Made by a program: the position numbers and the translations under genes | Notes under the pieces: model-generated | Told to the model about the DNA's origin: nothing | The model's database searches: none | The model's input: only the letters and a program-made list of their open reading frames with translations | Assembly (NCBI RefSeq): GCF_003334405.1 | Contig: NZ_QOWM01000004.1 | Strand: one strand, 5' to 3' | From: Escherichia coli | Lineage (GTDB): Bacteria > Pseudomonadota > Gammaproteobacteria > Enterobacterales > Enterobacteriaceae | DNA: 64,000 bases | Shown: piece after piece, positions 43,973 through 44,413 of the stretch | How the letters are laid out: the number at the start of each line of letters is the position of its first letter | Numbering within the stretch: position 1 is the stretch's first letter

Positions 43973-44413
43973 AACTTTTCCTTTATTCATCGCATGGACA
44001 ATACGTACGCTTGAGATCAGGATTGTCTACTTTGAGTATAACATCCTTGTGAAATCTCCCTTTCCTCATACCGCTTGCACTATATACTGCGGGTAGGAAA
44101 GGCGCGCAGAGGGAAATATAAGATTGTTAACTATCCCCCTCTGGAAATACGACTTGTGAGCATAAGATAAATCTTAGCAAAATACAAATTAAAGATAAGG
44201 AAATTGTTACGAAAGCTATTAATTATTGTTGGTAATATAGTTTCAAGTGGTACTATAACTGGCTGTTAAATGGCATTTATAACTATTAGGTGCAGAGATA
44301 TTCGCTTAAATGGATTAGTTTCTTTGTGGAAAAGTAACTGATGTTATAATGTATGATGTTGACTATTGCACTATTCCAATAAAACCAGTCAGCTTTAAAC
44401 AAGCAGCGTCATA

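Follow-up and report, generated by a model that had tools for sequence, protein, structure and literature searches.

Between cspH and appA the window (the whole 64-kb stretch of DNA analyzed here) carries seven co-oriented genes, gfcA-gfcB-gfcC-gfcD-gfcE-etp-etk, which is the arrangement that defines a group 4 capsule operon (Table 1). Their coordinates map one-to-one onto the MG1655 annotation. The first-pass annotation, made from the sequence alone, had described this unit as intact and translationally coupled. The former description stands, all seven ORFs (7/7) being open, full length, and without an internal stop; the latter is appropriate for three of the six junctions (gfcB/gfcC, gfcC/gfcD, and gfcE/etp), at which the reading frames overlap, but not for the others, which are separated by gaps of 106, 45, and 19 nt. 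The Shine-Dalgarno core of gfcA, AAGGA, is found at 43983-43979, and an ATG in the same frame, 18 nt ahead of the gfcA start (43990), offers an alternative start. All seven genes are reported to be required for capsule in EPEC (PMC4368438, PMC3853201).

Table 1. Coordinates, within the window, of the genes and sites discussed in the text, and of target duplications of IS1 insertions found in other isolates
Feature	Position	Strand	Remarks
etk	36258-38438	-	protein-tyrosine kinase, 726 aa; last operon gene
etp	38458-38904	-	phosphotyrosine phosphatase, 148 aa; 13-nt overlap with gfcE
gfcE (yccZ)	38892-40031	-	polysaccharide export lipoprotein, 379 aa
gfcD	40077-42173	-	698 aa; 1-nt overlap with gfcC
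gfcC	42173-42919	-	248 aa; 4-nt overlap with gfcB
gfcB	42916-43560	-	lipoprotein, 214 aa, GTG start
gfcA (ymcD)	43667-43972	-	threonine-rich inner membrane protein, 101 aa; first operon gene
gfcA-cspH intergenic spacer	43973-44413	-	441 bp, 35.1% G+C; upstream/regulatory region of gfc, without interruption
Empty IS1 target site GACAATACG	43997-44005		25-33 nt upstream of the gfcA ATG
Candidate extended -10, TGtTATACT	44035-44043	-	relaxed scan; -35 matches 2/6; prediction
K-12-private-allele position	44368		G in the window, T in MG1655; marks the source as non-K-12
cspH	44414-44626	-	cold-shock-like protein, 70 aa; upstream neighbor, same direction as gfc
IS1 insertion site (target duplication)	43953-43961
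IS1 insertion site (target duplication)	44020-44027
IS1 insertion site (target duplication)	44052-44060
IS1 insertion site (target duplication)	44100-44109
IS1 insertion site (target duplication)	44129-44136
IS1 insertion site (target duplication)	44166-44174
IS1 insertion site (target duplication)	44210-44218
IS1 insertion site (target duplication)	44220-44228
IS1 insertion site (target duplication)	44256-44268

Since cspH and gfcA are co-oriented, the spacer between them must hold both the end of the cspH transcript and the gfc promoter. It is AT-rich, at 35.1% G+C versus about 51% for the operon and for the window, and local stretches within it fall to 21-32%. Alignment of six diverse E. 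coli reveals that the spacers are 94-100% identical, with the 130 nt proximal to gfcA almost invariant and the polymorphism concentrated near cspH. In a comparison of E. coli genomes the spacer was found only where the gfc operon is present, the two being absent together, as is expected of a regulatory region belonging to this operon.

An IS1 insertion is recognized as a 768-bp element with terminal inverted repeats, the genes insA/insB, and a target duplication of 8-10 bp; none was found in the window. A blastn search of the whole window with IS1D (word size 7, E<=10) returned chance matches of 12-28 nt only, none of them within 43973-44413. The spacer contains no ORF of 40 aa or more resembling a transposase, and a repeat search of it detected no IS1-type terminal inverted repeats. 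The original observation that the gfcA-cspH spacer is free of IS1 is thus confirmed. The repeat search did return short imperfect hairpins, at 44107-44143 and, recognized by eye, at 44061-44102; the idea that these represent an RNA structure was dropped because their variation across strains is non-compensatory. An Rfam scan of 43600-45200 placed no family in the spacer, its sole hit being a full-length match to the cspA thermoregulator (RF01766; 159 bits, E=3e-43) at 44756-45178 on the plus strand, spanning the 5′ UTR and the start of cspG.

Minor variants of the region were also encountered. The laboratory-derived isolate EC0026B_R4 has lost 23 bp from mid-spacer, equivalent to 44152-44174, and in NZ_CP101005.1 (ET82) the 200-bp query 43901-44100 spans 234 bp in two pieces, which points to a short duplication or insertion (~34 bp) beside the IS1 target site. 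Of the 6,841 places matching a 43600-44700 query, five belong to plasmid and not to chromosome records.

The window aligns collinearly with MG1655 1005773..1070549 at 99.98% identity; 14 SNPs separate the two over 64 kb, and the sole structural difference is IS1D (768 bp), which the window lacks. Within the operon region the only difference from K-12 is an intergenic SNP at 43663. In MG1655, IS1D (insA4/insB4) occupies 1049778-1050545, between gfcA and cspH. The two alignments of the K-12 flanks overlap by 9 bp at window positions 43997-44005, and this 9-mer, GACAATACG, has one copy in the window but two in K-12, where they flank IS1D as its target-site duplication. The presence of just one copy of a sequence duplicated in occupied genomes, with flanks that are otherwise collinear, identifies an empty target site. 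The first-pass statement that K-12 carries IS1 at exactly this position was therefore correct, and the check proposed for it, alignment to MG1655, reveals that K-12 is not identical to the window across the spacer. IS elements are a classic source of assembly errors, and a real IS1 copy might have been collapsed out of the assembly, although there is no specific sign of such an error here. Collapse, however, normally breaks contigs rather than joining the flanks precisely with a single 9-bp target, and the identical empty-site structure is found in 3,181 complete genomes; we consider this explanation extremely improbable.

A second marker lies 371 bp from the IS1D site, in the direction of cspH, where K-12 has a private T. 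This allele was counted in 5,426 complete E. coli genomes with a 55-mer centered on the T, and 373 of them matched. Sixty evenly sampled matches, some of them K-12-sized genomes with odd source labels, all (60/60) look like laboratory K-12 derivatives (MG1655, DH10B, BW25113, HB101, C600, J53, and others). The window has neither the IS1D upstream of gfcA nor the private T by which the K-12 lineage is recognized. Across 24 kb (32000-56000) it matches, at 100% identity, wild isolates of food, pig, and human origin as well as old NCTC strains; FORC 064, NCTC9087, and ETEC1716 are examples.

The near identity to MG1655 nevertheless raises the question of whether the window comes from a K-12 derivative that has lost IS1D by engineering or precise excision. 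The 99.98% identity and full collinearity over 64 kb are what such an origin would leave, and IS1 deletion strains of K-12 do exist (PMC12428005). Against this stand the 14 SNPs spread over the window, the G at 44368 versus the T of the 373 genomes with the K-12 allele, and the exact match to the alleles of wild isolates across 24 kb. In lambda-Red engineering, flipping out the cassette leaves an FRT scar. The published deletions replace IS1 with an FRT-flanked cassette (PMC12428005), whereas the site in the window is a clean single 9-mer without an FRT scar. A derivation from K-12 is accordingly very improbable. The source is a wild-type E. coli nearly identical to K-12 in this region, and the proposal that it is not a standard K-12 is upheld by the SNPs, the allele at 44368, and the 24 kb shared with wild isolates. 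As a practical strain marker, the empty site at 43997-44005 together with G at 44368 excludes K-12.

The same 5,426 complete genomes were used to ascertain how common the IS1-free state is. The 200 bp surrounding the site are matched in 3,616 genomes, 3,181 of them uninterrupted, and the K-12-type gfcA/IS1 junction is present in 414. The whole operon and spacer are absent from about 1,800 genomes (about one third); in these, appA adjoins cspH and the homologous sequence begins again at about 44413-44416, at the stop codon of cspH. This agrees with a published survey in which the G4C genes occur mostly in intestinal pathotypes and the G2C genes mostly in ExPEC (PMC8281228). Among non-K-12 genomes possessing the locus, roughly 4% have an IS1 in or beside the gfc promoter and about 96% resemble the window. 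The IS1-free state is the species norm, and K-12 is the exception at the gfc locus. With 3,181 uninterrupted versus 414 occupied genomes, the absence of IS1 is not the noteworthy feature that it was taken to be; the window presents an ordinary, previously described wild-type configuration, and the difference between K-12 and pathogens has already been published. By itself the finding matters little: the source is placed among the non-K-12 E. coli in which, as in most intestinal strains of the species, the group 4 capsule export operon is potentially functional.

Nor is an IS1 at this exact site a mark of K-12, as had been implied. Subtracting the 373 T-allele genomes from the 414 occupied ones gives an estimate of about 41 non-K-12 genomes with IS1 at the K-12 site. 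The exact site, with the same 9-bp duplication and orientation, was verified in four non-K-12 isolates: ETEC1730 (pig, Belgium), MB20 (poultry, Cuba), 2018-02-2CC (human, Vietnam), and A134_1EC (Mexico, no host recorded). The IS1 of each differs from IS1D at 3-9 positions, and in the first three the flanks on the cspH side are 100% identical to the window across 44368, that is, they carry the non-K-12 allele. The shared site could be the result of common descent accompanied by gene conversion, or of a site-specific hot spot. A 55-mer query with a central mismatch, designed for IS1D-specific alleles, was uninformative, as the T127 allele is widespread among IS1 copies. A134_1EC additionally possesses a 1.45-kb deletion (equivalent to 41997-43451) that takes out the 5′ end of gfcD, gfcC, and most of gfcB, and its operon has thus been inactivated twice.

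Other independent IS1 insertions in or just upstream of gfcA, at least 10-11 of which were mapped, occur in unrelated isolates (Table 1). These variants are 91-99% identical to IS1D and have their own duplications of 8-13 bp. In the clinical isolates 8600 and 123636, an IS1A is associated with a 484-bp deletion (43687-44170), and in both of them gfcD is frameshifted as well. An IS1 in the opposite orientation occurs no farther than about 600 bp away in 42 genomes; among those listed, the spans of the matches point to roughly a dozen further positions.

Whether the gfc spacer is a special hot spot for IS1 was addressed by applying an identical anchor-plus-IS1 query design to two other spacers. 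On the gfcA side the query detected 52 genomes with an insertion away from the K-12 site, plus the 42 in the other orientation; the controls gave 7 genomes on the cspH-to-cspG side and 78 on the cbpA-to-yccE side. As the control counts bracket that of gfc, the claim of a special hot spot beyond a preference for AT-rich DNA was rejected. IS1 prefers AT-rich DNA, and this preference may be enough to explain the insertions in the gfc spacer. The 78 genomes on the cbpA-to-yccE side (57227-57826 equivalents) have an IS1 of a single orientation no more than 600 bp from the start of cbpA. In many of them it sits at a common point inside yccE, apparently a lineage-specific insertion.

A broader reading is that the region upstream of gfcA is a recurrent natural target of IS1 and that the IS1D of K-12 is a polymorphism which also circulates in wild E. 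coli. We regard this as rather unlikely. Repeated independent hits in wild lineages could interest students of capsule loss or of IS1 target choice, and if selection against the O-antigen capsule, not AT preference alone, drives them, they would represent convergent capsule loss at the promoter level in commensal and multidrug-resistant lineages.

The location of the gfc promoter was sought by scanning for −35 and −10 hexamers near the consensus with a spacing of 16-18 nt. Between 43900 and 44700 the consensus scan found no sigma-70 promoter (2.0 expected from shuffles), and no intrinsic terminator was found in the spacer. A relaxed scan of the spacer yielded weak candidates only. The best promoter-like match within the invariant proximal block is a predicted extended −10, TGtTATACT, which is unchanged in the six strains. 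Its position upstream of the K-12 insertion point would be compatible with IS1 cutting the leader or the promoter from gfcA.

In the literature, IS1 is described in the ymc/gfc promoter of K-12 and not in that of pathogenic strains, and K-12 is considered not to express the operon (Lacour 2008, PMC2516531, citing Peleg 2005); IS1D has likewise been placed within the gfcA promoter region (PMC12428005). The first-pass statement that the insertion is held to silence the operon thus reproduces the published view. Silencing is not absolute, since etk-dependent phenotypes are detectable in K-12 despite the IS1 (PMC2516531). A genomic SELEX study of K-12 includes a predicted RpoD promoter on the side of insA4 that faces gfcA (PMC3946193), the −10 hexamer of which, by our own reading of the bases, would be located in the left end of IS1 and directed outward. 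In view of the etk phenotypes and this predicted promoter, the IS1 of K-12 may not fully silence the operon.

The converse expectation, that a strain without the IS1 may express the operon, does not follow from the missing element alone. Both EHEC and EPEC have an active operon, yet the gfcA transcript of EHEC is about 30-fold less abundant (PMC3853201). EHEC is also free of IS1, which indicates that the absence of the element is insufficient for strong expression. Mutants of EPEC and of S. sonnei are complemented by plasmid-borne gfcA or by the entire operon with its own promoter (PMC3853201, PMC4368438). Capsule formation further requires the Wzy-dependent O-antigen pathway (PMC4368438), the locus for which (rfb/wb*) lies outside the 64-kb window.

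It is very probable that the spacer represents the ancestral, uninterrupted upstream region of gfc in a wild-type E. coli that never received IS1D, such that transcription from the native promoter is possible. Under this interpretation the source strain would never have acquired the IS1 copy that is present in K-12 25-33 nt upstream of the gfcA start, and the AT-rich upstream region, contiguous with gfcA, would permit the operon to be transcribed from its native promoter. In K-12 the 768 bp of IS1 cut all but the last 33 nt of the leader off from the upstream DNA. The native promoter presumably lies upstream of 44005 and probably needs activation or counter-silencing, and the operon is presumably expressed under some conditions; formation of a capsule would also depend upon the Wzy-dependent O-antigen locus outside the window.

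A different outcome, quite possible though short of an even chance, is that the operon is free of IS1 and intact and yet ordinarily silent or very weakly expressed, or expressed without a capsule, in which case the absence of IS1 has no phenotype. The AT-rich region could be silenced or an activator missing, or the O-antigen pathway might not feed the capsule. The composition of the spacer (35% G+C, with stretches at 21-32%) and its want of a strong sigma-70 match are consistent with this, as are the IS1-free EHEC, with about 30-fold less gfcA mRNA than EPEC and, in the study concerned, no visible capsule (PMC3853201), and the differences in G4C expression between lineages of S. sonnei (PMC12511311). 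Conversely, the purifying conservation of the proximal 130 nt and of the seven ORFs suggests a unit in use, and the ability of a native-promoter fragment to complement the EPEC and S. sonnei mutants argues in the same direction. The ancestral, uninterrupted state remains our preferred reading of the structure itself.

Comparison with known group 4 capsule loci reveals several states from which the window differs. The whole operon is absent from about one third of E. coli genomes, which is not so here. In strains 8600 and 123636 the IS1A and its 484-bp deletion have removed the promoter and most of gfcA, and the g4c locus of S. flexneri 2a has a 14-bp frameshifting deletion in etk (PMC4368438); both lesions are absent from the window. 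The K-12 locus, with the IS1D insertion upstream of gfcA, has flanks 99.98% identical to the window and the same 9-bp target, GACAATACG; K-12 possesses IS1D, a second copy of the 9-mer, and the private T at the equivalent of 44368, whereas the window has neither the element nor the second copy, and has G. The gfc/g4c loci (ymcDCBA-yccZ-etp-etk) of EPEC O127, EHEC O157, and Shigella sonnei have these seven genes too, in an identical order and likewise between appA and cspH. Upstream of gfcA, the spacer of O157:H7 shares about 94% identity with that of the window, and its proximal 130 nt are essentially identical. The window differs from the EPEC, EHEC, and S. sonnei operons in being a K-12-like allele, the proteins of which are identical to those of K-12; no further difference was noted.
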